A stretch of 64,000 nucleotides of DNA from Candidatus Coatesbacteria bacterium (GCA_016927185.1 JAFGND010000025.1:15889-79888); one strand, 5' to 3'; counted from the stretch's first letter, positions 8,591 through 31,635 are shown. Notes: a model not told the origin generated them from the letters alone. Numbers and translations: made by a program.

Positions 8591-9787
8591 TTAATCAATC
8601 TTCACCAACCTCTTGCATTCCTTCCCAGACTTAACAATATAAATCCCCTGTTTCCATTTACTTGTATCAATAGAGTGCTTGCCTTTGGCAAGGTTCATAA
8701 TAAGCTGACCAGTCAGGGAATAGATAGAAGCAGGGGAGGGGAGAGATAAGGACAAGTGGGTTGAGAATGGGTTGGGATAAGAATAAATCAAGAAAGAAGG
8801 TATTGCATTGGAACCATCAGCCCTATTAAAACCACTTTTATCTGTTGGATTATAGCAAACTGAATAAACATGATCAGTGTGTCCAGTAAACGTGTCTATG
8901 CATGTTCCGTTAGACAAGCGCCATAATTTAATATTATTATCATACCCTCCAGAGAGTCCATATCCATCATCCTTGCTGAAAATCACACTCAGAATTCCAT
9001 TTTCATGTCCATGCATTGTTCTCATACAAGAACCATCAGATAATCTCCAGTATTTGATGGATTTGTCCCTGTATCCGCTTCCTGATAAAGCATATCTGTT
9101 ATCATTACTTATATCAACTGAATATACTGCATCTTCATGCTCATTCATTGTTCTTATGCATGTCCCATCTGAAAATCTCCAGTATTTTAAGGTCCTGTCA
9201 TAACTACCAGAGAGAATGTAAGTACCATCTGAACTAATAGATACTGATGATACATAATTGGAATGTCCAGTTAAGGTTCTGATGCAAGTTCCATCTGACA
9301 ATTTCCAGAGTTTTATTGTATTGTCACAACTTCCTGATGCTGCATAATTACCATCTGGAAAGAATGCAACAGTATTCACCATACTTGCATGTCCTGTCAT
9401 TGTCCTTATGCAACTTCCTGTTGATAAATCCCAGTATTTAACAGTATTGTCCCAGCTTGCAGAAAGAGCTTTTGTTCCATCTGGACTGAATTTAACAGAA
9501 AAGACAGAGCTGGTGTGCCCCTTTAACCTGTTTAAAACGGTTTTTGTTTCCAACTCCCAGTATATTATTACACCTTCCATATCAGCTGAAAGAACATAAC
9601 AACCATCCGGACTTATATCAACACTGCATACTGGCAGGTAATGTTCTCTAAATGTAGCTGTATTAGTTGCTGTTGAAGTATCCCAGTACTTCAAGGTTTT
9701 ATCCCAGCTGCCTGAGATCGCGAATCTTTCTGCGTTTAGATTTGCTGCAATAAATATTAACAAGAACAAGAACAATAAATTTTTCAT
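8591..9787 (-). CDS. Secreted WD40 beta-propeller protein with T9SS-type C-terminal sorting domain
   Basis: Signal peptide. Seven or more 'SxSxDxTxKxW' WD40 blades ('SGSWDKTLKYWD', 'SASWDNTVKYWD', 'SGSCDNTIKLWK'…). C-terminal 'SYPNPFSTHLSLSLPSPASIYSLTGQLIMNLAKGKHSIDTSKWKQGIYIVKSGKECKRLVKID' matches the Por/T9SS CTD pattern (PNPF … GVYIVK). Confidence 0.75.
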   Translation of the reverse strand: MKNLLFLFLLIFIAANLNAERFAISGSWDKTLKYWDTSTATNTATFREHYLPVCSVDISPDGCYVLSADMEGVIIYWELETKTVLNRLKGHTSSVFSVKFSPDGTKALSASWDNTVKYWDLSTGSCIRTMTGHASMVNTVAFFPDGNYAASGSCDNTIKLWKLSDGTCIRTLTGHSNYVSSVSISSDGTYILSGSYDRTLKYWRFSDGTCIRTMNEHEDAVYSVDISNDNRYALSGSGYRDKSIKYWRLSDGSCMRTMHGHENGILSVIFSKDDGYGLSGGYDNNIKLWRLSNGTCIDTFTGHTDHVYSVCYNPTDKSGFNRADGSNAIPSFLIYSYPNPFSTHLSLSLPSPASIYSLTGQLIMNLAKGKHSIDTSKWKQGIYIVKSGKECKRLVKID

Positions 9788-10077: not shown

Positions 10078-13000
10078 CTAAAATAAGAATCTCATTACAA
10101 GCTCACCATAATGCCTTGCTGGTATCTCAGGCTTCTTTCTTCCCTGGTAATGCAAAGTTGCGAGCATATTCTGACTGAGTCTGTAATCGATATTAAGCAA
10201 CCACAATTTGGTAAGTCCTCTTTCCTCATCAATAAACAGCTGGACAGGAATATCTTCTGTGTTGGATTTTCTCTCTATCAGGGAAACTTCTGAATGAAGG
10301 TTTGCACCCTTCATGAACCCGTAATCAAGACCAATTGTTGGAGTAAGTCCGGTCAGTATTATGTTCCTTTCGGTTTCCGTCTGCCTTTTTGCGCTGAATG
10401 AAACAAATGGTGTTAGATTCTTTCTTATATCATAAGCAGCTTTGGGAATTATCTCTGTTGTGATTATCCTGAAAAGATAATATTCTGGGATTTCCTCTGT
10501 CTCTCTCTGATAAAACCCTGTCAAATCCAGATGCCATGGAGTGTATTTATCAACCTTTATATATGGAGAGATAGACCATAAGCGATTATATTTAATATAA
10601 CCCAATTCATCGCCACTAAGGGATTTCTCTAACTTTACTGTTACTGCTGGCTGGAAGTCTGTTTTATCAGGAAAAAGAGTTCCTTTTGTCTCTAACATTT
10701 GCCTGCCATTCTTGCAGTTATCCTTCTGGAATTCAGTTATATCAAGAAGAGCGAGGGATGAAATACTTGGATCTGTCTCTTCCTCTGTTATTTCACTGAT
10801 TATGTCTAGTTTCCATAATCTGTCCTGAATGATATTATCTTTCTTGCTTGATGGTGGCATTATAGTAGTATTTGAAGAAAGTGATACACTGCCTCTTTTC
10901 TCTTTATCTCCAACATCAACGAAATATCTTCTATAATCACCATCTTCGTCTGGATAGAATTCACCAGTATTTTCATCCCTGCTATATTGTCCCATTCCTT
11001 CATCAGTCTGTTCGTATCTTGCCTCCCTCATTGTTGCCATTTTTGTGGAGAGTATATAAGATAAATCAATTTGCAGTGATTTTGAATCGGACAAATAAAA
11101 CAATCCAGCTTCAGCAAGATCAGTATAACCACTTTCCCCAGTATCCTTGAAATATTTCTGAACACTATGTACAAATCTCAATCTTGGCTTAAATGATAAT
11201 TCTTCTGCAGCTTCTCCCTGAAAACCTGCTTCCCAGCTTCTCTTGCCAAGCATGTAGCCTTCATCATAAGAAAGCTCACGTCTGTCTGCACTTGCAAAAG
11301 GATAAATAAGCCATTTCTTTTCCTTGCTGAACTCTATCCTGCCCGATGCTTCTTGTTGCCTGTAAGGAAGATTGAGAGTTGTACTGTCAGAGAACTCCTT
11401 TGCCCAGATTAGCGAACCATCAAGTTTCGGTGATATGAATCTATATCTGTATGATGTTTCAAGATCATAGTATTTCCTGTACAGTTCATCTTCCAGATAG
11501 AATTTATCCTGCATGTTTTTAATATACCCAGTTCTTGAGAATATAGTTAAATCCTTGAAAATATCTCCACCAATGTTTCCTTCAATCATTTTCCCATTCC
11601 AGGATGCACCTTCATTGTCTGAAAAGCCATGTCCCTTGAAGAAACCTGATTTCGCTCCAACTCTGTATTTCCTGAGAAATGGTACATTGGCATTCGAAAT
11701 ACCTGAAGTATAAGAACTTAAACTGTCTTCTGGAGTTAGCAGCCATGAAGACTGGAAATCGCTGGTTTCATTGTAAATAAACGGAGAGAATTCAGGTTGA
11801 CGCTTGTGGATTTCTGCTTCAAGGAACAATTGTTTCAAGTTCTCTTCGCCTATTACTATTTTTCCATCACCAGCACCCTTGATCTCTCGTTTGCTGGTTT
11901 CATCAAACAATATATTCTCGTTGAAGGAACTTATTGCAGTTTCAGCAATAAAGGAGAAAAACCTGGATGGATTCAAATCAACTCTAACTTCAGCCATTTC
12001 CCTTCTCTGAGGTGGAGCATATGGAATCATTGCAACATAATTGCCTCTTCCCTCACCTGTATATTCATATGCTGCAATGGAATGACTATATCTGTAATCT
12101 CCCTCTCCTTCGTCAACCTCAGTGAAAATGACTGACCAGTCACCCTTGTGGAAACCTGCATATCTGTAATAATAACTTCCATCAGTCCTGTTTATCCTGA
12201 AATAATCTCCCTTGTTTTCACCTTCATACTTTCCACCTGGAATATAAACCGGTTTCCCTTTTTCATAATTTTTCCTGAAAAAATCAAGATCCTCTTCAGT
12301 GAATTCCTCTCCGTATGTTGAATATGGGCTGTCTTTTTCGCTAATAATGGAGAAGCCCACATGATTCTTTCTTTCCTTATCTATTGGTATGTCAGCACTT
12401 GCGCCTGTCATTATTCTCCTGAATTTGCCAAGTACGTAACTATATTCTACGTAAATCCTTGTATCTGAGTGAATCGGAATCTGCGATGTAAATGTTACTG
12501 ATCCATTGTTATAGTCAATATAATAGTCTTTGCCAACTTCCTTCAGTATTCCATCCACATAGACCTTGATGCTTCCTGAAACAAGGAAAATCTTTTCCTC
12601 TCCGTATTTCCCTCTCAGCTCATAAGGTCCCTGTATTCCTTCATCACCCAGAAATTCAGTTCTCATGAATTCCCCGTTAGTAATTGCATAATTTACTTCT
12701 GCTGAAGCAGGTGTTGCTTTTTCATACTTTTTACCCTCTATACCCTGGAGTTTTCCGGAATAAGCAGTCAGGTGACCTTCATCCCTGTTGATTTCAAGAT
12801 CTTCTATTCTTGCAAGATAATCTCTGTATTTTATCTGGAAGAATATCTTGTCAACTTCTGCAAGTGATGCAGAGGAACCTTCCTCAGAATAGGGAAGCTC
12901 ATTATCCTGCAGATAACCGCTTATTTCAGTCTCATCACCCAGATATCCCTCTATTGCAGCATCAAGTGTCTGCATCATTTCAAGACTTCCTCCTTCAGAC

Positions 13001-13440
13001 AGCCTTACTCCAATAGTCTTGTTTCCCTTTATTGAAATTCTTGCTTCAACTCCTTCACTGTCAGTAGTATCTATTAGTTCGTATTTAATGGATTTAGTAG
13101 AATCCTCTTTCACTTTCTTGAAAAGGGAATATCTTTTCGGTATATCAATCGGCAAAAACTGAAATGTTATCTTAACTGAATCATCTGGTGATGGAGGTAT
13201 CATGAAATGAATGGTTCCCCTGATATAATCTATTGAATAGTCTATATCTTTTTCCAGTAATATATTATCAAGATATACCTGTTCAGTTCCTTTGAAGGCA
13301 ATGTTATCAGTGAATTTCATATTCTGCGTCTTGAAAATCTTGTAAACTGTTATATATGATATGTTTAGCGAATCAGAATAGTTTTCTTCAGCATTCGCTA
13401 AAGCAGCAAAAAATGTGATTATCAGGAAAATTTTTCTCAA
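10078..13440 (-). CDS. Large (1120 aa) secreted/outer-membrane protein, unknown function
   Basis: Cleavable signal peptide (…ALANA/EEN). Rich in aromatic residues. Ends '…VMRFLF' (C-terminal Phe typical of OM beta-barrels). Internal repeated motif 'DY.IDY..G.(I/V).F' occurs twice. Confidence 0.55.
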   Translation of the reverse strand: MRKIFLIITFFAALANAEENYSDSLNISYITVYKIFKTQNMKFTDNIAFKGTEQVYLDNILLEKDIDYSIDYIRGTIHFMIPPSPDDSVKITFQFLPIDIPKRYSLFKKVKEDSTKSIKYELIDTTDSEGVEARISIKGNKTIGVRLSEGGSLEMMQTLDAAIEGYLGDETEISGYLQDNELPYSEEGSSASLAEVDKIFFQIKYRDYLARIEDLEINRDEGHLTAYSGKLQGIEGKKYEKATPASAEVNYAITNGEFMRTEFLGDEGIQGPYELRGKYGEEKIFLVSGSIKVYVDGILKEVGKDYYIDYNNGSVTFTSQIPIHSDTRIYVEYSYVLGKFRRIMTGASADIPIDKERKNHVGFSIISEKDSPYSTYGEEFTEEDLDFFRKNYEKGKPVYIPGGKYEGENKGDYFRINRTDGSYYYRYAGFHKGDWSVIFTEVDEGEGDYRYSHSIAAYEYTGEGRGNYVAMIPYAPPQRREMAEVRVDLNPSRFFSFIAETAISSFNENILFDETSKREIKGAGDGKIVIGEENLKQLFLEAEIHKRQPEFSPFIYNETSDFQSSWLLTPEDSLSSYTSGISNANVPFLRKYRVGAKSGFFKGHGFSDNEGASWNGKMIEGNIGGDIFKDLTIFSRTGYIKNMQDKFYLEDELYRKYYDLETSYRYRFISPKLDGSLIWAKEFSDSTTLNLPYRQQEASGRIEFSKEKKWLIYPFASADRRELSYDEGYMLGKRSWEAGFQGEAAEELSFKPRLRFVHSVQKYFKDTGESGYTDLAEAGLFYLSDSKSLQIDLSYILSTKMATMREARYEQTDEGMGQYSRDENTGEFYPDEDGDYRRYFVDVGDKEKRGSVSLSSNTTIMPPSSKKDNIIQDRLWKLDIISEITEEETDPSISSLALLDITEFQKDNCKNGRQMLETKGTLFPDKTDFQPAVTVKLEKSLSGDELGYIKYNRLWSISPYIKVDKYTPWHLDLTGFYQRETEEIPEYYLFRIITTEIIPKAAYDIRKNLTPFVSFSAKRQTETERNIILTGLTPTIGLDYGFMKGANLHSEVSLIERKSNTEDIPVQLFIDEERGLTKLWLLNIDYRLSQNMLATLHYQGRKKPEIPARHYGELVMRFLF

Positions 13441-14577: not shown

Positions 14578-16338
14578 TCAATTAAGCTTTATAAGCTTGT
14601 CAGTATGCTCTCTGGAGCCTGTCCTAACTTTTATTATATATACTCCATTTTTGAAGGAACTGGTATCAGTCGTTATCAAGTGATTTCCTGCAGTATAAGA
14701 TCTTGATGCGTATGATTTTACAAGTCTTCCTGTAATATCATAAATAAGCACTTCAACATTATCTGTCTGTTTCAGATTGAAGTTAATCTTCAGTTTGTCA
14801 TTGAAAGGATTTGGAGATATCTTTACTCTCTCAGGTAAATGAAAATAGGATTTCTCTTTTGTTTCAAAACCAGTCTTGGTGAAATATAAGTCTATTACCT
14901 TGATTTCTCCTTCTGCAACAGTGAATGTCTGTGACTGAGGAGTGTCTCCAAGTAATATTGCTACAAGGGTATATGTTCCGGGAACAAGCAGATGTTTATA
15001 ACTTCCAAATGAATTAGAGAATACTGCTGAGGCTTTTTCGTTATCAAACAATTCAGCTATCTCTACAAGTACATTTGGTATTGGCTTGCCGTTCAGTTTA
15101 TTATATGTTTTTCCTGTTACCTGTGTCATATTAAGCCCAGCTTTCAGGAATTCCTTTGTTCCCTCGAAAGCATTCTCTATGGTTGGAAGAATATACTCAG
15201 CAGATGGGAAAAATCCACCTTCATCAGAGGAATTCAGTTCTATTGTATATGCATAGGTATGACCAGCTGCATATAACCAGTCATCGCTTCCGCCATAAGT
15301 AGGATATAGCTCATAACCTCTTTGTCCAGTATATCCCATTGTTGTGGCAGCTGCATTTCCAATTTTCCTGAATACTGCATCCTTCTTTGAAGCTTCGCTG
15401 TAACAACTCCAAGGCCACAGAACCAGCTCTCCATATGAATGAAAACTCAATGAAAGTAGTGGCTTTTTGGCAAGAGTGAAACTTCTTATTATCTGGATTT
15501 CAGGTTCACTAAACTGGGATGGACCTCTGTATGTTGGGCTGTTTGGATCAGTATCTCCTGATTCCCACATATATGCATAATTCCTGTTAAGATCAACTCC
15601 ATCTGCTCCATATCCTCCATAAGAATAATCCAGTACTCCGTTCGAATTGTTGTCCCTGAAATCCTTGCGCCACATTTGCTGCTCACTGTCAGTTGAATTG
15701 AAAACAAAATCATAACCATCTGGATTCACAATAGGAAGGAACCATAGCTCATAATTGTCTATCCATTCCTTGTAATCAAGTACGCTGCTGTAACCTTCCA
15801 CAAGTGTGTTCATAATATACATTACGGCTGAAACTGACATAGGTTCCCTTGCATGATGCAATCCCATTATCATGAAAATAGGCTCATCTTCATCAGTCGC
15901 AACATTGTCAGATACTTTTGCTACAAGCATATCAAAGCCTTTGTAATACGTCTGTTTGCCAGGATAACCATTCTTTTTTACCCAGGAATCTCCAGCATCA
16001 AAGTACTTGACTATACCTGGAAATCGCGTCTGGAGACTCATGATCTGTTCATAGACTTCTGAATAATCAAGATAATCAGGATCTATTCCTCCTATCATTT
16101 TCTTTAGTATAGTTCCGGAATAACCCAGTCTTTTGAGTTTCTCTATCTGCACAGGAGTAACAAGTAAATGAGCAGTCTTATTTGGAAGTATTGCTGCTAC
16201 ATCAAAGCCTGCTTTATAGAGTTTTGCTATTAGCTCAGGCGTAATTCCCCTTAATTCATATGTATATAGCGGAGCAGATGAGAAAAGCCCTGCATACATA
16301 ATTAAAATAAAGGTCAGTACAACAAAAAATATTTTCAT
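14578..16338 (-). CDS. M14-family zinc carboxypeptidase with T9SS C-terminal domain
   Basis: Signal peptide. 'GLHHAREPMS' (HxxE zinc motif of M14). C-terminal 'KISPNPFNDKLKINF…VEVLIYDITGRLV…NGVYIIKV' is a classic T9SS CTD. Confidence 0.8.
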   Translation of the reverse strand: MKIFFVVLTFILIMYAGLFSSAPLYTYELRGITPELIAKLYKAGFDVAAILPNKTAHLLVTPVQIEKLKRLGYSGTILKKMIGGIDPDYLDYSEVYEQIMSLQTRFPGIVKYFDAGDSWVKKNGYPGKQTYYKGFDMLVAKVSDNVATDEDEPIFMIMGLHHAREPMSVSAVMYIMNTLVEGYSSVLDYKEWIDNYELWFLPIVNPDGYDFVFNSTDSEQQMWRKDFRDNNSNGVLDYSYGGYGADGVDLNRNYAYMWESGDTDPNSPTYRGPSQFSEPEIQIIRSFTLAKKPLLSLSFHSYGELVLWPWSCYSEASKKDAVFRKIGNAAATTMGYTGQRGYELYPTYGGSDDWLYAAGHTYAYTIELNSSDEGGFFPSAEYILPTIENAFEGTKEFLKAGLNMTQVTGKTYNKLNGKPIPNVLVEIAELFDNEKASAVFSNSFGSYKHLLVPGTYTLVAILLGDTPQSQTFTVAEGEIKVIDLYFTKTGFETKEKSYFHLPERVKISPNPFNDKLKINFNLKQTDNVEVLIYDITGRLVKSYASRSYTAGNHLITTDTSSFKNGVYIIKVRTGSREHTDKLIKLN

Positions 16339-16396: not shown

Positions 16397-18163
16397 TTAA
16401 TTGATTTTCAATGCCTTCTTTATAAATATTTTATCCGCTACTCTGCATCTTAATATATAAACTCCATTACTCATGTTGCTGGAATTAAACCTGACTCCAT
16501 GATTACCAGAAGGATAAGAAGCCTTGACTAGTGTCTTGATAAGTCTTCCAGTCAGATCAAAGACCTCGACTAAAACATCAGATTTTTCACTGAGATTGAA
16601 GCTTATATTAAGCTCATTTCTGAAAGGGTTTGGAGCTAATTTTAAAGCTTCGGGAAGAATTTTTTGTGCAGTCTCGTTATTCTTGAAGCCGGCATAATCA
16701 AAATAAAAGTCTATTTCCTTTATTTCCTTGTCTGCAACAGTGAATGGTATTGTCTGTTTTGGATTAGCTCCATATTCTGCCTCAAGTGTATAATTTCCCG
16801 GAACCAATAAATAACGATATCTTCCGAATTCGTTTGTTTTCCTTGGAGTCCAGTGATTTGGATCATTAAGTTCCCTTATTGTGACTTTTACACCCTTGAT
16901 TGGATTTCCTGTTCCCCTAAGGAATGCTCTTCCAGTAACCTGTGTTGACAAACCATTTACAAAGAAAGCCCTCAAGCCTGACCATACTTTTTTCTGAGTG
17001 GGTTCTATCATTTCTGCTGGTGGAAAAAATCCGCCTTCATTATCTGTATTCATTTCTATTGTATAAGGATATGTACCAAGTTCAGCATATAACCAGTCAT
17101 CACTGGTTCCATAGCATGGATAAAGTTCCACTGCCTGTTCGGGAGTATAACCCATAGGAACTGCTGATTCTCTGCCGATCTTAGACAGAAGAGCTGCTTC
17201 CGTTGATGCAGAATAATAGCATCCCCATGGCCATAATACCAATCCTGAATAAGAATGCAAACTAACTGAAATAACTGGTTTCTTTGATAATGTCAAAGTT
17301 CTTATAACCTGAACCTCAGGTTCACTGAATGGATAAGGTCCGCGATACGTAGCAGAATACTGTGAATTATCACCTCTGCTCCATTCAAAAGAATAGTTCC
17401 TGTTCAAATCAACTCCATCAAGTCCATTGGCGCTACTACCGAAGTCTGCTTTGTGATTATTATTGTTATCTCTCAGATTCTTTCTCTGATTTTTTTCCCT
17501 GTTGTCATGATAATTAAATGATACATTATGACCATCTGGGTTTAACAATGGTACAAACCATATCTCATAAGAATCTACCCAGTTCTTGTATTCCGAGTTT
17601 GTTGCATATTGCTCTATGAGCTGCTGCATTGCATAAACCGAAACCTCAACTGTCATTGCCTCTCTTGCATGATGCAATGCCATGATAAGTAAAACAGGCT
17701 CATCTTCATCGGAATTTACATTATCAGATACCTTGAGTCCCATAATATCATAATCCTGATAATACCATTGATTATATTGCTTGTAATTGTTTGTCTTTAC
17801 CCATGGGTCACCCAGATCATAAAGCTTTGCAATGCCTGGATAATTTGAAGCAAGTCTCTGCATTTCCGTAAGAAGTTCATTATAATCAGTATATGCAGGA
17901 TCAAGCCCCTTGATATTGCTGTTTATCTCTCTCTTTATTACGCCAGAATAGCCAAGCGTTTTCAATTTTTCTATTTCATTCGCAGTAGCGAAAATGTGGG
18001 TGAATTTTCTAGGCATAACAGCTGCAACATCAAAACCTCTTGAAATTAGATCACCATTTTGTGAGCTCGTAAGGCCTTGAATTTCATATACATAAATGGG
18101 TTCGTCTGAGGATGCATAAGAGATAAAAAAGATAATAATACAAAAAGCAATTAATGTTTTCAT
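16397..18163 (-). CDS. M14-family zinc carboxypeptidase with T9SS C-terminal domain (tandem paralog)
   Basis: 'ALHHAREAMT'. C-terminal 'LAPNPFRNELNISF…VLVEVFDLTGRLI…NGVYILRC'. Homologous along its length to 14578-16338. Confidence 0.8.
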   Translation of the reverse strand: MKTLIAFCIIIFFISYASSDEPIYVYEIQGLTSSQNGDLISRGFDVAAVMPRKFTHIFATANEIEKLKTLGYSGVIKREINSNIKGLDPAYTDYNELLTEMQRLASNYPGIAKLYDLGDPWVKTNNYKQYNQWYYQDYDIMGLKVSDNVNSDEDEPVLLIMALHHAREAMTVEVSVYAMQQLIEQYATNSEYKNWVDSYEIWFVPLLNPDGHNVSFNYHDNREKNQRKNLRDNNNNHKADFGSSANGLDGVDLNRNYSFEWSRGDNSQYSATYRGPYPFSEPEVQVIRTLTLSKKPVISVSLHSYSGLVLWPWGCYYSASTEAALLSKIGRESAVPMGYTPEQAVELYPCYGTSDDWLYAELGTYPYTIEMNTDNEGGFFPPAEMIEPTQKKVWSGLRAFFVNGLSTQVTGRAFLRGTGNPIKGVKVTIRELNDPNHWTPRKTNEFGRYRYLLVPGNYTLEAEYGANPKQTIPFTVADKEIKEIDFYFDYAGFKNNETAQKILPEALKLAPNPFRNELNISFNLSEKSDVLVEVFDLTGRLIKTLVKASYPSGNHGVRFNSSNMSNGVYILRCRVADKIFIKKALKIN

Positions 18164-18432
18164 AAATCCTCCCTCGAAATTTTTTACAAAAGTAATATAA
18201 TAATAAACAGCTTTTTTGTCAAGTCGATACTTATAAATAGTTATATTCGTAAGTATAAGTTTTTTAATAAGTTAGGGGAACAGGAATAATTAAATAATGC
18301 GACAGTTTTCTTGTTTTTCTAAATACTTAAATATCAATGATTTAAGGGAACAATATTTCGTGAAAAAAATGAATTATACTAAGTATTATAATTACCTGCT
18401 CCAGAGAATCATTTAAACAGATAAGCATCAAC

Positions 18433-21400
18433 TTAACTTGTAAATCCGAATTTCTTGTCTTTTCCTAATAGCATTGTTGATAGTTTTTCAAAATCAGCTG
18501 ACATTTCAGGGAATTTTTCAGATATTCTCGAAATGGAAATCTCTTCCTTCAACTCCTTAAGCCATGTTCTTGCAGCAGGTTGCATTTTCATTATTATTTC
18601 CCTGAAGAGACTTACCGGAATTACCTGCTTGCCTTTGTTCTGATTGATACTATCCTGAAAAACCTTTTGTATGCATAATTGGTAAGCATTATCCATTTCT
18701 GCAAATGAAAAGCCAATGCTTGCATTAATTGTCTCAGTAACATCCTGCCCTTGAAACTTGCTTTCAAGATATTCCTTTCTTTCACTTTCGTCTGGAAGAG
18801 AGAAATAAACAAAACGATCAATTCTACCTGTAGAAAGAAGTGAAGATGAAACCATATGAGGATTTTTTGTAGTCCCTATAAAGTAAACAAATGTATTTTT
18901 TCCCTGTAGTGCATCAAGTTCAAGCTGGAACTGAGCAATCAATTCATTTGTCGTTTGCTTCTGCCATAATATATCAATGTCATCTACCAGAATCAAGGAA
19001 GGAGACTGTTCTATTGCGGTATTAAATAAATTAGCAATGTTCTTCGAAGCATTACCACTCCATAAATCTAGAAGCTCACTTCCCTTGACTGGTATCAAGG
19101 ATAAATCAGCTTCTCCTGCCAGACAATATGCACAAAAGCTCTTACCTGTACCTGGTGCTCCATAAAACAGGAAGCCTCTTGATAAATCAAGTCCATAATT
19201 CCTGGCTAGCTCCTGTTCTTTCATTGGAAGCAGTACTTCCTGTTTCAGTATTTCTTTCACGGATTTCAATCCGATCATGGTCTTGAAATTCCTGTCAGTT
19301 ACTTTCAATATCTGGAATTTTGCTAATCCTCTTTGCTGATCACTTCCTGCATATATCATTTTCTTGTGTATTCTAGCCTGGTACTTAAGCTCGCATGCGA
19401 GTTCCTGGAATTTATCATTTAGTGATGAAGGATCAATAGCAGCAGAACACGATTCGAACCATCCCCATAATTTGGGTTTTACCAGATTTATTGAATTCTT
19501 GACTGCCTCGAAATCAACAGGTGGGGCTTGAATCCTTGCTGCTGTACTGTCAGGGCGAGTATTCTCTTTTATGACCTTTGCAAATTGAGATTGCGAAGCA
19601 AGATAACATATATTTTCTATTTCCGCACCACTGTAACCTTCAGTCAATTTAGATAATGTCTTCCATTCTTCGTCAGTCAATTGAGGTGGCAATTTGAATT
19701 TATGTTTGAACATATCCAGCCTGGCTTGAATGGTCGGTACCCCAATGTAAATCAATCTGTCAATCCTTCCGGGTCTCAATATTGCCTCATCGATTGCCCA
19801 TGGTCTATTGCTTGCACCTATCACCATTATTTCCTCATCATTCGAGCCGAAACCATCAAGTTCAACGAGGAGCTGGTTTACCATTTCCAGATGAACGCTA
19901 GTTTGTGACCTGTCAACAGATTCTCTCTTACCGCAGAGAATATCAAGCTCATCAAGAAAAACAACGCATGGTGTATGATTCCCTGCAAACTTGAAAAGAT
20001 TCTGTATGTTTCTTGCACCATTTCCAACCCACATATCAACTATTTCTGATACTTTCACATTGATAAGTCCTGCCTGGAATCTTGCTGAAATCGCTTTTGC
20101 AAGCATAGTCTTGCCACATCCCGGAGGACCATAAAGCAGGATTCCCCTGTTTGCCTTCAAGCCATAATGCCTTGCTAGTTGAGGATATTCAAGAGGTGCA
20201 AATATTTCCTGATAAAGAGTTTCTTTTACATCTGCAAGCCCCATTACATCATTGAATGTCACATCATTGACTCGTGAGAGAGAGAAGATTGAAAGCCCTC
20301 TTGACGCACTTCCACTTGATACAGGCATTTTTTTCTTCTGTCTGTAATACCTTTCCATTTCTTCCTTTAATGCCATATATTTACTTTCCAGAACCTCAGA
20401 TTCTATATTTCTGTAGCAATCATCAAACCAGTCTTCCAGCGTAGGCTGGATTTCTTTCTGTGCTTCAAGAAGAAGTGGCATATCTATCAATATCTCTTTT
20501 TCCTGCTGTACAGCTGTTGATAGTGCCTTGCTTGCAGCAATATCAGTTATATTCTGGATTTCCGCTCCACTGTATTGATCTGTTTCCTGTGCCAGCCTCC
20601 TGTAATCAATATTATCTGAAATTGGTCTGTTTTCAAGATTAAGTCTGAATATCTCTGTTCTCATATCTTCATCAGGAACACCTACATAGAACATTCTGTC
20701 CAGTCTTCCTGGTCTTAGTGCTGCTGGATCCAGAGCCCATGGTCTGTTAGTAGCACCAACAATAAGTATTTGCCCCTCGCTTCTGCTGAGATTACCCATT
20801 TCTGCCAGAAATTGATTAACAGCTTTTCTTTGTTCTTCATGCATATTGACTGCCCTGTTAGTAAGGAAGGCATCCAGTTCATCAAGCAGGATCAGAGAAG
20901 GAGCATTTTCTTTTGCAAATTTAAACAGATTAGTGATATTTATTGCTGAGGTTCCCAGCCATACTCCTGAAATATCTGATGATTTCACATCGATGAAATT
21001 CATGCCTGTTTCACCACAAAGTGCTTGCATTATCAGAGATTTTCCACATCCCGGAGGACCATAAAGCAGGATTCCCCTGGTTAGATCAATCTGATAACGC
21101 TTAGCCTGAGCTGGATAACGAAAGGGGAGTACTACTTCCTCATAGAGTCTTTTCTTAAGGTCTTCGAAACCAGCTATCCTTGAAAAGTCCATTCCAGTGA
21201 TTTTCTGGACAGTGAATGTGGATAAACCTTTCTTCAGATCTTCATCATTTAGATACATTTCCTTATGAAAGGTCTGAATAGTCTGAGTGAAGAAACTTCT
21301 TACTAGTGAAACATCCTCTCCTTCCATGAAATTAAGAGAATCAAGTTCTTCTTTTGAAGAGGAGGAATTAATAAAAGCTCTGATTCTTTCTTTAGCAAGA

Positions 21401-22224
21401 TCAGTCTCTATATTAAGCTTATCTGCCCATTTGTAAGTATAAAGATTTATGAAGTGGACTTCATAAACCTCTTTTAAATCAGCGAGAAGTCTGGGTTGTT
21501 CCAGATTTATTGCAGCCGCTTCATTAATAAGCTCCTTGGCTTTTGGAGAGGAAAAAGGTAACATTGCAAGAGCAAAAGCTTCATAAAAATAGAAATTACG
21601 ATTTATTATATTTTCATCATACTTCATGGCAATATCAATACAATTCTTGTAGTCTTTGTCTATCTCGCTTTTCTGGAATCTATTTCTCATTGAATCTATT
21701 GTATATTTGAAATAAAGACATCTTACTGTTTCCCTTGCAATTCTTATATTCTTGGAATTGGGAAGTCCCTGAGAAAGGAACTCCAAACCGAGTTTTGCCC
21801 CGAAATCATAACCATTGAAGCGTTCCTGCATATCAAGCTCTTCATATAAACCAAGAAGCCTGTAACCTAAAACACCCATTTCGGGATAAATGAAACTTTT
21901 CTTGAATTCACCATGCATTTTCCTTAAGGCAATCAAAGCCTCTCCAAATATCTTCTTGGAATAGGTATCCTTTTCGAAATTGGCAAGCCCTCTTACTGCC
22001 TTGTCTTCTTCAATGAAGTTGTTCAAGGCATCATCTGAATAAAAAGTTGCATAATATATTATTACCTGAAGTAACCAGTTCTCAGGAAGAGAGTAATAGT
22101 ATTTGAAAGCTAACTGGAAAGCCATCATCAAGTTGTCTCCCTCGAAAAGGCAATTTATGGCTTCCCGCAAATCATTTTCAAATTGCTTTCTATCAAACTT
22201 TGCAGCAGGTGGTGTTGGTGACAT
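18433..22224 (-). CDS. Triple-AAA+ ATPase (three tandem classic-clade AAA modules) with ~330-aa helical N-terminal domain
   Basis: Walker A in three places ('ILLYGPPGCGKS', 'ILLYGPPGCGKT', 'FLFYGAPGTGKS'). Each is followed by Walker B (LILLDELD / VVFLDELD / LILVDDID) and second-region Arg ('RPGRLDR', 'RPGRIDR', 'STGRIDR'). Confidence 0.8.
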   Translation of the reverse strand: MSPTPPAAKFDRKQFENDLREAINCLFEGDNLMMAFQLAFKYYYSLPENWLLQVIIYYATFYSDDALNNFIEEDKAVRGLANFEKDTYSKKIFGEALIALRKMHGEFKKSFIYPEMGVLGYRLLGLYEELDMQERFNGYDFGAKLGLEFLSQGLPNSKNIRIARETVRCLYFKYTIDSMRNRFQKSEIDKDYKNCIDIAMKYDENIINRNFYFYEAFALAMLPFSSPKAKELINEAAAINLEQPRLLADLKEVYEVHFINLYTYKWADKLNIETDLAKERIRAFINSSSSKEELDSLNFMEGEDVSLVRSFFTQTIQTFHKEMYLNDEDLKKGLSTFTVQKITGMDFSRIAGFEDLKKRLYEEVVLPFRYPAQAKRYQIDLTRGILLYGPPGCGKSLIMQALCGETGMNFIDVKSSDISGVWLGTSAINITNLFKFAKENAPSLILLDELDAFLTNRAVNMHEEQRKAVNQFLAEMGNLSRSEGQILIVGATNRPWALDPAALRPGRLDRMFYVGVPDEDMRTEIFRLNLENRPISDNIDYRRLAQETDQYSGAEIQNITDIAASKALSTAVQQEKEILIDMPLLLEAQKEIQPTLEDWFDDCYRNIESEVLESKYMALKEEMERYYRQKKKMPVSSGSASRGLSIFSLSRVNDVTFNDVMGLADVKETLYQEIFAPLEYPQLARHYGLKANRGILLYGPPGCGKTMLAKAISARFQAGLINVKVSEIVDMWVGNGARNIQNLFKFAGNHTPCVVFLDELDILCGKRESVDRSQTSVHLEMVNQLLVELDGFGSNDEEIMVIGASNRPWAIDEAILRPGRIDRLIYIGVPTIQARLDMFKHKFKLPPQLTDEEWKTLSKLTEGYSGAEIENICYLASQSQFAKVIKENTRPDSTAARIQAPPVDFEAVKNSINLVKPKLWGWFESCSAAIDPSSLNDKFQELACELKYQARIHKKMIYAGSDQQRGLAKFQILKVTDRNFKTMIGLKSVKEILKQEVLLPMKEQELARNYGLDLSRGFLFYGAPGTGKSFCAYCLAGEADLSLIPVKGSELLDLWSGNASKNIANLFNTAIEQSPSLILVDDIDILWQKQTTNELIAQFQLELDALQGKNTFVYFIGTTKNPHMVSSSLLSTGRIDRFVYFSLPDESERKEYLESKFQGQDVTETINASIGFSFAEMDNAYQLCIQKVFQDSINQNKGKQVIPVSLFREIIMKMQPAARTWLKELKEEISISRISEKFPEMSADFEKLSTMLLGKDKKFGFTS
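20114..20149 (-). repeat. 36-nt exact direct repeat (copy 2) inside the AAA gene, encoding 'RGILLYGPPGCG' of module 2
   Basis: Identical to 21044-21079. Confidence 0.8.
21044..21079 (-). repeat. 36-nt exact direct repeat (copy 1) inside the AAA gene, encoding 'RGILLYGPPGCG' of module 1
   Basis: Identical to 20114-20149. Confidence 0.8.
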
Positions 22225-22239
22225 TTCACTCCTTTAAAA

Positions 22240-23595
22240 CTATTTGGTGGTTGAAATCCTTTTTTCCATCAAACTGTCAAATCTTTTTGAGTAATTCTGT
22301 AATAATGCAGGTAATTTAGACAACTCTATATCATTCAGTGGAGGAAAAGAAATCAACCTGTTTTTCAGTGGATTAACATTCCTTCCTCCAACTTTTATCC
22401 TGTAATCCAGGTGAGGACCTGTACTTAATCCTGTTGAACCGACATATCCAATAACTCTTCCTGTTTTTACGAATGTGCCTTTGTTTACTCCTTTTGCAAA
22501 ACTGTTCAAATGTCCATAATAAGTGACAACTCCTGCCATATGCTTTATTGCAATCATGTTTCCGTATCCTCCACTCCTTCCCTTCATGACAACAGTACCT
22601 GATGAAGCTGCTCGAACTGGAGTTCCTTTTTTTGCAACAAAGTCTATTGCAAGGTGAGGTCTGTATCTCTTTAGAATAGGATGCATTCTTCTAATTCTAT
22701 AATTACTGGATATCCTTTTGAATCTTAACGGTATTATTAATGCAATTCTGTGAAGGCACTTTCCTGTTTCAGTATAATACAGACCTTCCCCTGGATCCTT
22801 TTCAAGAATAGGAAGAGAATCATCTTCAGCTACAACTTCTTCCTGTTTCAATGATGAAGGATAAAAAGCCAACTGGTATGTCCTGTCAGTTGTTTCTGCC
22901 TTGCTCCACCATAACTGCTTGAATTCTCTTCTTCCTCCGGGTAAAACCTGTTCAGTTATCAGGAATGAAAAGACAGTCCCTTTTTCTCTGCATTTCTTTG
23001 TTCCTATATATCTTGCCCAGAATTGTATTGCTTGCTTGATAAAAGCTGGATTATTATATTTCTCGGCAAGCATTGGCTGCATTCTTGTTGAGAGAGTGCA
23101 AACCAAGGCTCTTTCCTGAAGCCCTTCCTTCATTGTTACGCACTGCATAAGCCATCCATGAGAAGTCCTGTAACCCCGGTATATCTCCTTGCTTTCTCTT
23201 TGAAGTTCAAGACTGTCAATTGATCCATCAGCATTCTTTGAAAATAATGTTATTTTATCTCCCTTCTGAGATATTCCAACATCCTTGTTCTCCTTGAAAG
23301 CTTCAACCAGGCTATCAATCCTGTTCTCAGGTTGTCCTATTCTCAGAAAAAAGTCGTTCCATGTCTCCCTTGTTTTCACTTCAATTAATTCTGGATAGTA
23401 ACCTGAAGGTTTAATTTTTTCCTCCACCTTCACAGGTTCTTCTTTTTTTTCGCTTTTCCTTGATATTTCAATGAATAATCCTCTTACACTTATAAAAACA
23501 AGGAAAATACCAATAATAAGAATAAAAAGAAGTCCATAAGGCAAGAATCTGTTCCAAATGATGAGGTTTTTCCATATATCCTTAAGGAAATTCAT
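22240..23595 (-). CDS. Membrane-anchored M23/LytM-family metallopeptidase
   Basis: N-terminal TM helix. C-terminal 'GYVGSTGLSTGPHLDYRIKVGGRNVNPL' is the M23 HxH/HLH zinc motif region. Overlaps the upstream gene by 4 nt (atga). Confidence 0.75.
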   Translation of the reverse strand: MNFLKDIWKNLIIWNRFLPYGLLFILIIGIFLVFISVRGLFIEISRKSEKKEEPVKVEEKIKPSGYYPELIEVKTRETWNDFFLRIGQPENRIDSLVEAFKENKDVGISQKGDKITLFSKNADGSIDSLELQRESKEIYRGYRTSHGWLMQCVTMKEGLQERALVCTLSTRMQPMLAEKYNNPAFIKQAIQFWARYIGTKKCREKGTVFSFLITEQVLPGGRREFKQLWWSKAETTDRTYQLAFYPSSLKQEEVVAEDDSLPILEKDPGEGLYYTETGKCLHRIALIIPLRFKRISSNYRIRRMHPILKRYRPHLAIDFVAKKGTPVRAASSGTVVMKGRSGGYGNMIAIKHMAGVVTYYGHLNSFAKGVNKGTFVKTGRVIGYVGSTGLSTGPHLDYRIKVGGRNVNPLKNRLISFPPLNDIELSKLPALLQNYSKRFDSLMEKRISTTK

Positions 23596-25739
23596 TTTAC
23601 TGTTTCTTCTTTTCCTGCAATCATTTCTATAAGCCGTGATATCTGTTTTGAATACTTCGGATCATTTATCAGGAAGTTATAGTATATGGCTTTCATCAAG
23701 TTTTCATTAGCACTTTTTTCCATTTGTAGCATATATTGTGACCATGCCAGGACAGTGTATGCTGGTGTCCATTTACTCCTATGCTTTATTATTTCAGAAG
23801 CAATCTCTGCTGATAATAAATACTGCTTATTGATTAGAGCCAGTTCTGCATGAATAAGCTTAATTGAAGTTAGATCAGGATGCTTGCTAGCGTAAGATGA
23901 CATGAGTTTATATGAATCAAGATAATTTTTTTTCTTGAAAAGCAAACAGGCCTTTACAAACTCTGACTCTTCTGGATTATTCCTGAGTTTTTTGGAGATA
24001 TTTTTTAAAAGAAAAAGCCTTATCTTGCCTACCATGAATTGAGACAATACAAGCAAAGAATCAGCATTTTCAAGACTCATAAGGTACTTGCCTTCTTCTG
24101 TCTTCGGATCAACAAGGAAATAATCAACTTCCGAAACACTATTGAAGTCGCTTATTCCATTTTCATGGAGAACGAATCTTGTCTTGTTACTTAATCCAGG
24201 CAGCGCAGACCAGGAAGCACCCAACTTCTTGTTTCCAACAATCTCTGCAACCTCCCTGCTTGTAGCAAGTTGAGAAAACTGCTGATTGTTATTATTAGCA
24301 GAGATATGAATGACAAGGAAATATGAATTCACCAGGAAAAGAAATCCAGCGAAATATTTGACATAGTTCAGGTTGAGATTGAGTTTTTCTTTTCTCATGA
24401 ACATGAGAATCAATATCGCTGCAATCAAGGATATCAAATCGTGTAAATAGGCTGGTTTAGTGAATTTCAATATCATCATATCCTCGTCATGCATATACAT
24501 CATATATCTTTGTGGAATGAACTCACCAGCAGCAAAAGTGAATCTCAAGAACGTGTAGCAGACAATTGCTAGTATTGGCAAGAGAATCAAGTAATGTAAT
24601 AATGAGAAGTCTGGGTTCTCGAAAATATTCTTTTTCTTCATCACTTTCCACATTTCGATGATTACTATTGGCATGGGAAGCAGAAGCATCATTTCATATC
24701 TTAATGGACAATATGTATTCAGGGAAAGATAGCATGGTATAAGTAAAAGCATCAGGATACTCCATTTTACATATAATCTCAGATTAGCTCCATATTGTTT
24801 TACTGAATAAATTGATGCAATACCTAAAGCCAGATAGCCAAGAATCATTTGAGCAGGAGCTTGCTGGGCAAGTAAAGAAAAAGTTCCTATTCTTCTTAAG
24901 CCATCAATATAATCATATATGGAAGTTATCATTGGTTGGGCTTTTGTTATAGTCAAATATGCATTTTTCCATTCCTGGTAATCAGGCAAAATAAGTATAA
25001 AAAGATATAGAATGAATGTAGCAAATGCTCCAGATAGAAAAAAGACTAACCTGTTCCTTGCTTCTCTTCTACCATTAAATGGCAACAGGAAATCCCATAG
25101 CAAAGAGATGAAAGTCACTAATACTATACTTGAAGCTGCAGCTTTTATTCCCATTGCAGCAAGAACCATCAATGACCCTCCCAGAGATATCAAGTATTTA
25201 TTATTCTTTAGTATAAGGAGCAATCCTGTCATTACTAAGGCAAACATCGGAAATTCAAGAAGCGCTAGCTTGCCATAAGCATAGAATGGTATGCAGAGAA
25301 CGAATATCAAGCAGCCTATAAAAGAATGAAGTTCATCGTTTTCCTTTCTCAATATTGAAAAATAGATGAATATCAGTCCTAATGCAGAGAGAATGCTTAT
25401 CAATCTAGCCGAGAAGAAAGAGACACCTATAACTTTGAAAACAGAATACTGAATTATTGAAAGAAATGATGTCAGATAGAATCTTGGCCAATTCCCCTCA
25501 GGTTTCCATGAGCCGAAATATATCTTGTTGATCGCAGGTGCTGCCCAGAAAGCTTCATCAGAGAAAGGTCCTGCAGACCAGCTCATCCCGAGCAGGGGAT
25601 CCCCCTCTGTTTCATGAAATAAAAGGAAAGCAGATATAATAAGCAGAATAATGAAACATATCTTGACTTTCGGGATTCGTATTTTTCGTTCCTTTACTGT
25701 ACTTGATGAACGCAATGTTTTTGATTTTTTCTTTGCCAT
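23592..25739 (-). CDS. GT-C fold glycosyltransferase (PMT_2 / family 39/83-like) with C-terminal TPR region; TMTC-like architecture
   Basis: About 12 TM helices. First periplasmic loop 'FSDEAFWAAPAINKIYFGSWKPEGNWPRFYLTSF…FSARLISILSALGLIFIYF' fits the PMT_2/ArnT loop-1 'DE' pattern. Last ~150 aa are soluble and TPR-like. Confidence 0.55.
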   Translation of the reverse strand: MAKKKSKTLRSSSTVKERKIRIPKVKICFIILLIISAFLLFHETEGDPLLGMSWSAGPFSDEAFWAAPAINKIYFGSWKPEGNWPRFYLTSFLSIIQYSVFKVIGVSFFSARLISILSALGLIFIYFSILRKENDELHSFIGCLIFVLCIPFYAYGKLALLEFPMFALVMTGLLLILKNNKYLISLGGSLMVLAAMGIKAAASSIVLVTFISLLWDFLLPFNGRREARNRLVFFLSGAFATFILYLFILILPDYQEWKNAYLTITKAQPMITSIYDYIDGLRRIGTFSLLAQQAPAQMILGYLALGIASIYSVKQYGANLRLYVKWSILMLLLIPCYLSLNTYCPLRYEMMLLLPMPIVIIEMWKVMKKKNIFENPDFSLLHYLILLPILAIVCYTFLRFTFAAGEFIPQRYMMYMHDEDMMILKFTKPAYLHDLISLIAAILILMFMRKEKLNLNLNYVKYFAGFLFLVNSYFLVIHISANNNNQQFSQLATSREVAEIVGNKKLGASWSALPGLSNKTRFVLHENGISDFNSVSEVDYFLVDPKTEEGKYLMSLENADSLLVLSQFMVGKIRLFLLKNISKKLRNNPEESEFVKACLLFKKKNYLDSYKLMSSYASKHPDLTSIKLIHAELALINKQYLLSAEIASEIIKHRSKWTPAYTVLAWSQYMLQMEKSANENLMKAIYYNFLINDPKYSKQISRLIEMIAGKEETVK

Positions 25740-25831
25740 TTTTTATTACCCAATCTCATACTCATTATAGAAAAGTCAAAATAAATGTGATTTGACTTGA
25801 CCAAAGCATGAAAAATATATCCCTTGATTAA

Positions 25832-29421: not shown

Positions 29422-31635
29422 ATGCAAAAAGGATTGACAGCAGAATATAAAACCTCTTTTTATTTTGCTATTTCATTATCAGTAATATGTTTCTTTTTTT
29501 TTCAGTTTCTCATGGCAGATGATATTACATGGACCAACTGGGGTGAAGATGGAGGAGATTTTCTGGCATGTGCATCTATTCTTGGTATTCCTCACCCAAC
29601 TAGTTATCCATTTTATACACTGCTTCTAAAAGCATTTTTTCTGATATTTCCTTTTGGAAACATAGGCTTCAGGGGAAATTTGCTTTCATCAGTTTTTGCA
29701 TCATCAGGAATATACTTCTTTTATATGATTACATCAAGACTGCTTTCTTTCATTCCGCAGGTGAAGAAAGACAGAAAAGGAGTAATTTATGGATTGCCTT
29801 TGCTTGTATGTATCATACTTGCATTAAGCAGAATTTTCTTGAGCCAGGCAATAATTACTGAAGTATATTCCCTGAATGCACTAATCTTTTTAATGAGTAT
29901 TCATTTCCTTTTAAAATGGGTGTTTGAAAAGAAAACCAATTACTTGATATTTGTATTTTATTTACTGGGATTGGGTTTCAGCCACCATGGCAGCATAATT
30001 TTCTTCATCCCTCTTCTATTGTCTGTTTTGATAAGATTTAAAAAAAGATTAAATGCAAGAATTGCTTTTTTTTCAATATTCATATGGTTGATTGGTCTTA
30101 CTCCTTATCTATATGATCCATTAAGAGCAATCCAGAATCCTCATTTATCGTGGGGTACACCATATTGCTTTTCTAAATTCTATTGGATTATAACTGCTTC
30201 TCAATACAGGTACAGGATGTTCTCAAGACCATTTATGGAAAGTCTAAGAAAATTCCGTTCAAGTTATCATATTGAGCAACAGATTGGATACCTGGGAGTT
30301 TTCATATTCATCTGGACAGCAATTACTTTACTGTCAAGATTCAAGAAAGCAGGGAGAATACGAAGTAATTTCGGGATAATAGTCATGGGATTGTCTTTAT
30401 CATTTCTTGCTAATTTGATTTATTCATTCAATTACAATATTGCGGATATAAATGCTTATTATATACCAGGTTACATTATTGCTTGTATTTTTCTCTGTCT
30501 TGGAACAGGAATACTCATCAAGATATGGCAGGAGAGCTCTATTTTTTATCCAAAATCGTATTTACCTTTGGTAATTACACTGGTTTTATTGACTGCTCCA
30601 CTAATCCTGAACATCAGAAAATGCAATAGCAGGACAAAACAAGATGCAAAGGAATTTACAACAGAAGTATTCAATGCAGCAAAACCAAATGGAGTAATTC
30701 TTAGTGAATATGATGGCAGAACATTCGGGTTATGGTACAAAAGATATGGTCCCTTGAAAGATAAATCCCAGGTTTTCATTATTTATAAGTATCTTTTTAT
30801 ATGGGACTGGTATTTGGAGCATCTTCCAAAAGTAGCTAGCAGGCTTTTATATCCACCAAAATCACCTATTGTTGATGCATATTTATGTGATCTGATAACT
30901 CTTAACATTGGGAGATTGCCTTTGTATATGGTGCGGGAAGATCCAGTCATAAAAACGAACTGGGATCTTGTTAGATTATATGATGCAAAAATGCCTTTAT
31001 ATGAAATAAAAGAAAAAGCCAGACTTCCTGAGGTCAAGTATTCTGCAAAAGAAGATACAATGTTTATTGATATCAGTACATTTGCAAACAGCTGCTATAG
31101 TCAGGATCCATTCAGAATCGGTGATGTAAGTGGTAAACCTAATCATTTCATTGGGCTGGATGAAGGAGAATATAATTATCAAGGCATTCCATTCAAATTC
31201 ATGAAAGCTGTCACTGGCAAGGAGAATAAATTCAACTGCATTTCGACTTGCTTTTTATCAAGAACATCATTTAAAATTCCTCTTGTCCAGAAGAGAAGCA
31301 AGCATCTGGCTTTTGCATTGACTGGAGGTGCTATTGCAAACTATAAAGGAGCTGTCTTGAAACTCAAGGTAATATATAAAGATGGTATGAATGATGACTT
31401 TGTTCTTTACAGTTGCAAAGATATATATGAATATGGATTTAAAAAGTATGGAGCAGAAGCTCCTCCTCTTGAAAAAATAATATGGCAAAATAAAAAGGGA
31501 GCGTTTATTACTGGTTGTGAAATAGATTTGGACAATGAAAGAATTCCAGAGAAACTTGTTATAAGAAATGCTGGAATTGCAAACAACGCAGGAGTTTATC
31601 CAGGAGTGATTATCTTTGCAGTCACACAATATTGA
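29422..31635 (+). CDS. DUF2723-family polytopic membrane protein (TMEM260-like putative GT-C glycosyltransferase)
   Basis: N-terminal 'WGEDGGDFLACASILGIPHPTSYPFYTLL' resembles the DUF2723 signature. About 11 TM helices followed by a ~330-aa soluble C-terminal domain. Confidence 0.55.
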   Translation: MQKGLTAEYKTSFYFAISLSVICFFFFQFLMADDITWTNWGEDGGDFLACASILGIPHPTSYPFYTLLLKAFFLIFPFGNIGFRGNLLSSVFASSGIYFFYMITSRLLSFIPQVKKDRKGVIYGLPLLVCIILALSRIFLSQAIITEVYSLNALIFLMSIHFLLKWVFEKKTNYLIFVFYLLGLGFSHHGSIIFFIPLLLSVLIRFKKRLNARIAFFSIFIWLIGLTPYLYDPLRAIQNPHLSWGTPYCFSKFYWIITASQYRYRMFSRPFMESLRKFRSSYHIEQQIGYLGVFIFIWTAITLLSRFKKAGRIRSNFGIIVMGLSLSFLANLIYSFNYNIADINAYYIPGYIIACIFLCLGTGILIKIWQESSIFYPKSYLPLVITLVLLTAPLILNIRKCNSRTKQDAKEFTTEVFNAAKPNGVILSEYDGRTFGLWYKRYGPLKDKSQVFIIYKYLFIWDWYLEHLPKVASRLLYPPKSPIVDAYLCDLITLNIGRLPLYMVREDPVIKTNWDLVRLYDAKMPLYEIKEKARLPEVKYSAKEDTMFIDISTFANSCYSQDPFRIGDVSGKPNHFIGLDEGEYNYQGIPFKFMKAVTGKENKFNCISTCFLSRTSFKIPLVQKRSKHLAFALTGGAIANYKGAVLKLKVIYKDGMNDDFVLYSCKDIYEYGFKKYGAEAPPLEKIIWQNKKGAFITGCEIDLDNERIPEKLVIRNAGIANNAGVYPGVIIFAVTQY

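Follow-up and report, generated by a model that had tools for sequence, protein, structure and literature searches.

Three tandem classic AAA modules and an orphan N-terminal domain on one polypeptide of a Candidatus Coatesbacteria bacterium

AAA unfoldases are usually taught as type I, with one ring, or type II, with two rings. Type II AAA+ proteins are described as having two AAA domains per protomer that form a double ring (PMC5447069). NSF-D2 carries an aspartate (Asp604) at the position of the catalytic glutamate; oligomerisation depends on this domain, and ATP hydrolysis by it is not strictly necessary for function (PMC2120109). Here, we analyzed a 64,000-nt stretch of DNA from Candidatus Coatesbacteria (GCA_016927185.1, JAFGND010000025.1:15889-79888; hereafter the window), in which one gene encodes a protein with three AAA domains per protomer and thus falls outside the type II definition. 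Positions are counted from the first letter of the window.

18433..22224, minus strand: AAA gene, a single unbroken open reading frame (ORF) of 1263 aa, with its stop codon at 18433-18435

The start codon of this gene (ATG) is preceded at 5 nt by AAAGGAG, a strong Shine-Dalgarno site, and GC content is even across the window. The window has the content of an ordinary bacterial chromosome (rpoB/rpoC, EF-Tu, an MCP and a TonB-family protein). The product is a 100% match to GenBank MBN1232263.1 (database id P0001), a singleton cluster deposited as "AAA family ATPase" from a Candidatus Coatesbacteria metagenome-assembled genome (MAG) on an 89-kb source contig. No transmembrane (TM)-like segment was found in the protein (maximum KD19 = 1.0), and we propose from its sequence that it is soluble and cytoplasmic.

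Domain parsing with Pfam revealed three separate stretches of the classic AAA domain PF00004 (344 bits in total), each of which scored above the gathering cut-off of 21.2 bits when the protein was cut into four pieces. The three modules (M1 to M3) lie in three repeat units (U1 to U3):

20305..21234, minus strand: repeat unit 1, residues 331-640, module M1; PF00004 126 bits plus AAA_lid_3; AlphaFold2 (AF2) core and lid
19336..20304, minus strand: repeat unit 2, residues 641-963, module M2, fully canonical; PF00004 138 bits plus AAA_lid_3; AF2 core and lid
18436..19335, minus strand: repeat unit 3, residues 964-1263, module M3, catalytic positions degenerate; PF00004 89 bits; AF2 five-strand core and lid helices

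Each unit of about 310 aa follows the same order: a linker with the motif (K/R)GL(S/A)xF, an N-terminal helix of about 40 residues, the alpha/beta core, the lid, and a helical stretch starting with QPxxxxW. The last residues of the protein, KFGFTS, match the beginning of the linker motif in the alignment. The Walker A motifs begin at residues 389, 699 and 1022, that is, at spacings of 310 and 323 aa, as expected from the intervals of about 300 aa with lid-like helices that an initial annotation, made from the sequence alone, had described. Matches to the AAA_lid_3 hidden Markov model (HMM) were found for M1 and M2, and no lid HMM matched M3. An AF2 model of residues 331-1263, computed from a 24-sequence alignment (mean pLDDT 82), contains five core strands, lid helices and extra C-terminal helices in each module, M3 included; pLDDT falls below 50 in the linkers at residues ~635-645 and ~955-968. 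Each module thus combines a PF00004 match with a predicted alpha/beta P-loop core and helical lid, as in the classic AAA clade, and the possibility that one of the three regions lacks a P-loop fold finds no support in the model. Our results therefore confirm the central claim of the initial annotation: the ORF is real, and it encodes three tandem classic AAA modules on one chain.

A Foldseek search of the PDB ranked p97/VCP first. At most ~650 columns were aligned, corresponding to two modules, and no solved structure in the PDB covered all three. M1-linker-M2 is colinear with p97 D1-linker-D2 in one stretch (residues 346-890 versus p97 202-708). By sequence, the D2 domain of p97/Cdc48 is the best match for every module, M1 included (best PDB match, p97 D2 residues 476-741).

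The motifs of the three modules, including those of the second region of homology (SRH), are as follows:

M1: Walker A GPPGCGKS 389-396; pore loop 1 VWLG, W422; Walker B D448-E449; inter-subunit signalling (ISS) motif EMGNL 475-479 (GNL, degenerate); sensor-1 N493; SRH RPGR, R504/R507
M2: Walker A GPPGCGKT 699-706; pore loop 1 MWVG, W732; Walker B D758-E759; ISS ELDGF 788-792; sensor-1 N806; SRH RPGR, R817/R820
M3: Walker A GAPGTGKS 1022-1029; pore loop 1 LWSG, W1055; Walker B LILVDD, D1081-D1082 (Glu to Asp); ISS ELDAL (DAL); sensor-1 position K1120; SRH STGR, S1131/R1134 (first Arg lost)

Walker A is intact in all three modules, as the initial annotation had stated. It had also reported intact Walker B motifs and SRH arginines throughout, which is correct for M1 and M2 only. 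The Walker B motif typical of the classic clade (hhhhDE) ends in DE in M1 and M2 and in DD in M3, and the SRH signature (sensor-1 Asn plus RxxR) is complete in M1 and M2, with only R1134 kept in M3. M3 thus retains its nucleotide-binding motif but carries substitutions at three positions specific to hydrolysis: Walker B, sensor-1 and the first SRH Arg. On this basis, catalysis by M3 is doubtful, and the earlier suggestion that M3 may be regulatory gains support from the three substitutions. The pore-loop Trp is kept in all three modules; the aromatic residue at this position is missing from several modules of the nearest relatives and from eukaryotic Cdc48 D1.

To place the modules, we built a neighbour-joining tree with 300 bootstraps. 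The three modules form a clade (82% bootstrap) in which the branching order is not resolved, and M3 has both the longest branch and the lowest HMM score, in agreement with its having been singled out as the most diverged. M1 and M2 had been regarded as close paralogs. This view did not hold: they are 35% identical to each other and 37-40% identical to AAA modules of other proteins, and their pairing as sisters received 3% bootstrap. The similarity noticed between them is concentrated in the conserved motifs. Over whole units, identity is 35% for U1/U2, 29% for U1/U3 and 31% for U2/U3. The units nevertheless have non-core features in common, namely the linker motif, the QPxxxxW helix, and SGAE/SFAE in place of the GAD of other families. 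Because these features lie outside the conserved core, we propose that the motor part arose by tandem triplication of a single ancestral unit of ~310 aa. At the DNA level, similarity among the units is limited to one 42-nt patch at Walker A; such strong divergence, with no long DNA repeat, indicates that the triplication is old and that an assembler could not have made the tandem. The position of the protein within the classic clade is not resolved either (grouping with the TPR-AAA/P0003 families, 9% bootstrap).

The 42-nt patch, which contains the codons for RGILLYGPPGCGK, lies at 21037-21078 in M1 and 20107-20148 in M2 (minus strand), with 95% DNA identity. Within it, 11 of the 13 identical residues use the same codon, compared to 44 of 100 outside it (Fisher p=0.007). 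A short gene-conversion tract could explain this, as could a local constraint on codons.

The triple-AAA layout is not unique to the Coatesbacteria protein. Among its 120 best homologues, 24 have three modules, 2 have four and 1 has five. The triple-AAA homologues fall in separate groups in the module tree, and modules cluster within their own group, which indicates independent duplications. P0005 is an archaeal-type Cdc48 with a duplicated D1. P0003 (TPR plus three AAA modules) and P0004 are encoded on archaeal contigs, in a context that has nothing in common with that of the Coatesbacteria gene. A further group, found in Acidimicrobiales/Thermoleophilaceae MAGs, consists of FtsH-like proteins of ~1160-1250 aa with two N-terminal TM helices and an M41 protease motif (HEAGH, HELGH in one). 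It has at least 13 members (P0006-P0011, P0013-P0016, P0019, P0023 and P0030; P0011 is MBA3300386.1). Walker B reads DE in all three modules of every protein checked, and RPGR and aromatic pore loops are present in most modules. Judged from these motifs, the family would consist of membrane proteases in which the ATPase has three tiers; no description of it was found in the literature searched. We also observed metagenomic proteins with four or five AAA modules: P0002 (1685 aa), which resembles two Cdc48 D1-D2 pairs on one chain, P0022 (1172 aa), and P0026 (2031 aa), in which all five modules carry a Walker A motif.

By analogy with type II proteins, we propose with moderate confidence that the Coatesbacteria protein is a soluble Cdc48/p97-like unfoldase, a hexamer of three stacked rings in which rings 1 and 2 would be motors and ring 3 a scaffold resembling NSF-D2. 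It would be a protein-remodelling ATPase of the classic AAA clade, to which Cdc48/p97, FtsH and PAN also belong. Hexamers would assemble as in type II AAA proteins, but the rings in the stack would number three and not two. The substrate or adaptor would be chosen by the N-domains on top, and the polypeptide would pass through the central channel, with a pore-loop Trp in each of the three tiers. Rings 1 and 2, with their complete catalytic sites, would perform the ATP-driven pulling. Ring 3 could bind ATP, given its intact Walker A; since Asp replaces the catalytic Glu, Lys replaces the sensor-1 Asn and the first arginine finger is lost, it would probably hydrolyse ATP slowly or not at all and would serve, like NSF-D2, as a stable assembly base. 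Beyond the observed architecture, modelled folds, motif states, orphan status and recurrence of the triple layout, the model is an inference: it covers hexamer formation, stacking of the rings, threading, how the rings share the work and what the N-domain does. In M3, elements that act in cis (Walker B, sensor-1) and in trans (Arg finger) are degenerate together, as would be expected if M3 sites form between M3 modules in a homotypic ring and the rings hence stack. Furthermore, colinearity with p97 D1-linker-D2 favors stacking, and retention of the triple layout in at least 13 FtsH-like proteins suggests that such an architecture is workable.

Several points weigh against this model and against the triplication proposed above. 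The protein is known from one MAG contig only. The AF2 model has a pTM of 0.40, so that the relative placement of the modules is unreliable. M1 lacks the DGF ISS motif, and ring 1 may differ in its working from an ordinary motor ring. The Walker B Asp of M3 is no proof of inactivity, and no orthologue was found whose conservation could confirm selection on the degenerate M3 residues or on the N-domain. Finally, the clade formed by the three modules may partly reflect long-branch attraction, as M1 and M2 are as close to outside modules as to each other.

The same M3 residues could be read differently if the substitutions are tolerated, with Asp as the catalytic acid, Asn1121 beside Lys1120 as sensor-1 and Arg1134 as the finger. 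All three rings would then be active motors, forming a three-stage translocase with extra grip or processivity. M3 does retain Walker A, the second SRH Arg, the pore-loop Trp and the full predicted fold, and the three canonical modules of the FtsH-like triple family suggest that three active rings are viable. However, the three independent substitutions fall exactly at hydrolysis-specific positions and spare the binding motif, M3 is the fastest-evolving module, and NSF-D2 provides a precedent for DD. We therefore consider an active third ring unlikely.

A second alternative concerns the substrate and is compatible with the structural models. The AAA gene comes third and last in a tight series of genes on one strand, in the following neighbourhood:

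25791..25764: promoter-like site 5' of the 715-aa gene
23592..25739, minus strand: 715-aa polytopic membrane protein, opening the putative operon and overlapping the M23 gene by 4 nt; no Pfam match
22240..23595, minus strand: membrane-anchored M23 (LytM-type) peptidase, 451 aa; PF01551 105 bits
18222..18194: strong promoter-like site in the 269-nt AT-rich spacer after the AAA gene
14578-16338 and 16397-18163, minus strand: a tandem pair of paralogous M14 zinc carboxypeptidases that follows the AAA gene directly and has the site at 18222..18194 as its own promoter-like site, each with CarboxypepD_reg and a type IX secretion (T9SS) C-terminal sorting domain

The ATPase might act with the membrane protein and the M23 peptidase, for instance by extracting, unfolding or regulating an envelope component from the cytoplasmic side. 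The 715-aa protein gene appears translationally coupled to the M23 gene through the 4-nt overlap; the M23 stop codon and the AAA start are separated by 15 nt, and these two genes are probably cotranscribed. One promoter-like site precedes the first gene, and the next occurs only after the AAA gene. The surroundings are rich in cell-wall enzymes (M23, the two M14 carboxypeptidases, and NamZ, encoded divergently upstream of the cluster). These features hint at an envelope-related role. On the other hand, the AAA protein has no membrane anchor, and the nearest triple-AAA proteins occur in unrelated contexts. No second occurrence of the context was found: the AAA and 715-aa proteins are both singletons (a 5.8e9-protein database contained no homologue of the latter other than itself), and a scan of contigs from species-representative genomes with the M23 neighbour as query returned no relative. 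Overall, an envelope-linked function seems improbable.

A defence function (IetA/IteA, TRIP13) was considered and rejected, since matches were generic and no partner gene was present: NCBIfam IteA scored 260 against a cut-off of 510, the PADLOC IetA matches were three generic per-module stretches, and no neighbour of the AAA gene, such as an IetS protease partner, had a PADLOC match. Elsewhere in the window, we observed a large membrane protein (29422-31635) matching a TMEM260-like O-mannosyltransferase, and a 398-aa protein (8591-9787, minus strand) that consists of WD40 repeats over almost its whole length (235 bits), a type of beta-propeller uncommon in bacteria. A 1120-aa ORF with a TTG start (10078-13440, minus strand) has a weak partial DUF2460 match (31 bits) and overlaps the asd stop by 4 nt.

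Another arrangement would place two chains of three modules in one pseudo-hexameric ring (M1-M2-M3-M1-M2-M3). Engineered covalently linked ClpX trimers and the single-chain rings of dynein and midasin are precedents for this, and three modules per chain divides six. The long flexible linkers, together with the additional helices that follow each lid, could span the distance to an adjacent position, and the spacing of 310-323 aa exceeds the ~273 aa of Cdc48-derived triples. Nonetheless, M1-linker-M2 is colinear with p97 domains that stack, and if the ring were mixed, loss of the Arg finger from M3 would disable an intact site next to it; instead, the cis and trans defects occur together in M3. 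To our knowledge, no natural classic-clade AAA protein builds its ring in this way, and none was found in the literature searched. We judge a single ring quite unlikely. An artefact, whether a false tandem created by MAG mis-assembly (the artificial fusion of which the initial annotation had warned) or a non-functional relic, is highly improbable: a single contig and a single sequence across databases represent the gene, and the exact gene is absent from the contig index, but the units share 29-35% identity and no long DNA repeat, the 3.8-kb reading frame is unbroken and has a good Shine-Dalgarno site and even GC, the M1 and M2 motifs (Walker A/B, sensor-1, SRH) are preserved, and the same architecture recurs independently elsewhere.

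The part of the protein that precedes the modules has no detectable relatives:

21235..22224, minus strand: N-terminal domain, residues 1-330, predicted all-helical

Consistent with its first description as a helical, unassigned domain of ~330 aa, it has no Pfam match (residues 1-340), and its AF2 single-sequence model contains helices only, with low confidence (pLDDT 39). An exhaustive phmmer search of 1.84e9 representative proteins returned only the protein itself. Kinship with the TPR N-domains of the nearest families was rejected (hhalign probability <1%). We also considered that the domain, which is about one unit long and has weak BLAST matches to Cdc48 D2, might be a decayed fourth AAA unit. 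This was rejected because hhalign and hmmsearch gave nothing beyond 15 residues overlapping U1, and because the BLAST score (27.7 bits) was within the range of 30 shuffles (27-29 bits). In the three-ring model we presume that this domain binds the substrate or adaptor.

Orphan status extends to the whole protein, as searches of protein databases, including the 1.84e9 representatives, found no orthologue of any architecture. Split-gene orthologues, which it had been suggested to look for, were not found: a search with a single unit for a split or ancestral form gave only generic AAA modules at 35-43% identity. We attribute this at least partly to sampling, since the upstream 715-aa protein is also a singleton and the scan of species-representative genomes with the M23 neighbour found nothing; the same sampling effect would account for the missing orthologues and split-gene versions.

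The PF00004 family is very well studied, and the protein was already deposited under a generic name. What appears to be new, in a phylum that has hardly been sampled, is a classic AAA protein that exceeds the classes described so far by one module and carries an orphan N-domain. In the literature searched, where reviews define type I and type II only, we found no account of a classic AAA protein with three modules. It is tempting to go further and propose an undescribed 'type III' class, made of hexamers with three stacked rings and 18 nucleotide sites, which would have arisen independently several times and which here would carry a substrate-recognition domain without relatives; we offer this as a tentative proposal, a little short of an even bet. 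If true, its origins would include the Coatesbacteria protein, the FtsH-like proteases of Actinomycetota, archaeal Cdc48 derivatives and TPR-AAA proteins. Triplication in several lineages independently, FtsH-like proteases with three fully canonical modules among them, suggests that evolution has added a ring repeatedly and not by a single accident. Furthermore, a naturally three-tiered machine would make it possible to test directly how the tiers share the work, that is, which tier grips, pulls or only holds the assembly, and the Coatesbacteria protein would provide a ready contrast, with two canonical tiers and a degenerate one still lining the pore.

The protein was also compared with established family models. 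It scored 502.5 bits with the CDC48/p97 family model TIGR01243 (cut-off 802.65), and Pfam found no CDC48_N or CDC48_2 domain in residues 1-340. With the FtsH model TIGR01241 it scored 461 against 600; it has no TM segment, and M41 (PF01434) is not among the Pfam matches listed for it. For PAN/proteasomal ATPases, 484 bits were obtained against a cut-off of 500, a score summed over the three modules, with no N-domain match. Its C-terminus (...KFGFTS) does not fit the HbYX motif.

Three FtsK/SpoIIIE-type ATPase domains per chain, with unequal roles, are found in EccC/EssC of type VII secretion. These proteins differ in belonging to the FtsK/HerA branch, not to AAA+, and in being membrane-anchored parts of a secretion system. 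Dynein, midasin/Rea1, RNF213 and VWA8 likewise have more than two AAA modules per polypeptide, some of them degenerate, but these are dynein/MoxR-type AAA_5 modules, not PF00004, and form one ring within a single chain. The FtsH-like triple proteases resemble the Coatesbacteria protein in having three tandem classic modules per chain, at ~29-35% identity to its modules, and differ by their independent triplication, two TM helices, M41 domain and module spacing of 272-273 aa. P0003, P0004 and the one-module actinobacterial TPR-AAA proteins ('SpoVK/Ycf46/Vps4 family') have the same N-x-P-W after sensor-1, and their matches to the model of the Coatesbacteria repeat unit reach ~position 300 of 321, into the post-lid helices. 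However, their TPR N-domains are unrelated to the orphan domain, their SRH reads RRxGR, and several of their modules lack the aromatic pore loop.

NSF D2 is a functional analogue proposed for M3, with Asp at the catalytic Walker B position and the ATP-binding motif kept; an M3 ring would likewise be expected to bind ATP, hydrolyse it poorly and hold the oligomer. M3 differs in retaining the pore-loop Trp, and no kinship in sequence with NSF D2 beyond the general AAA level was seen. For the protein as a whole, the best match in sequence and structure is Cdc48/p97/VAT, which has the same Walker, SRH and pore-loop motifs and presumably the same hexameric threading. Whereas these proteins have two modules and, in the N-domain, the CDC48_N double-psi barrel, the Coatesbacteria protein combines three modules, all of them D2-like, with an N-domain of its own.

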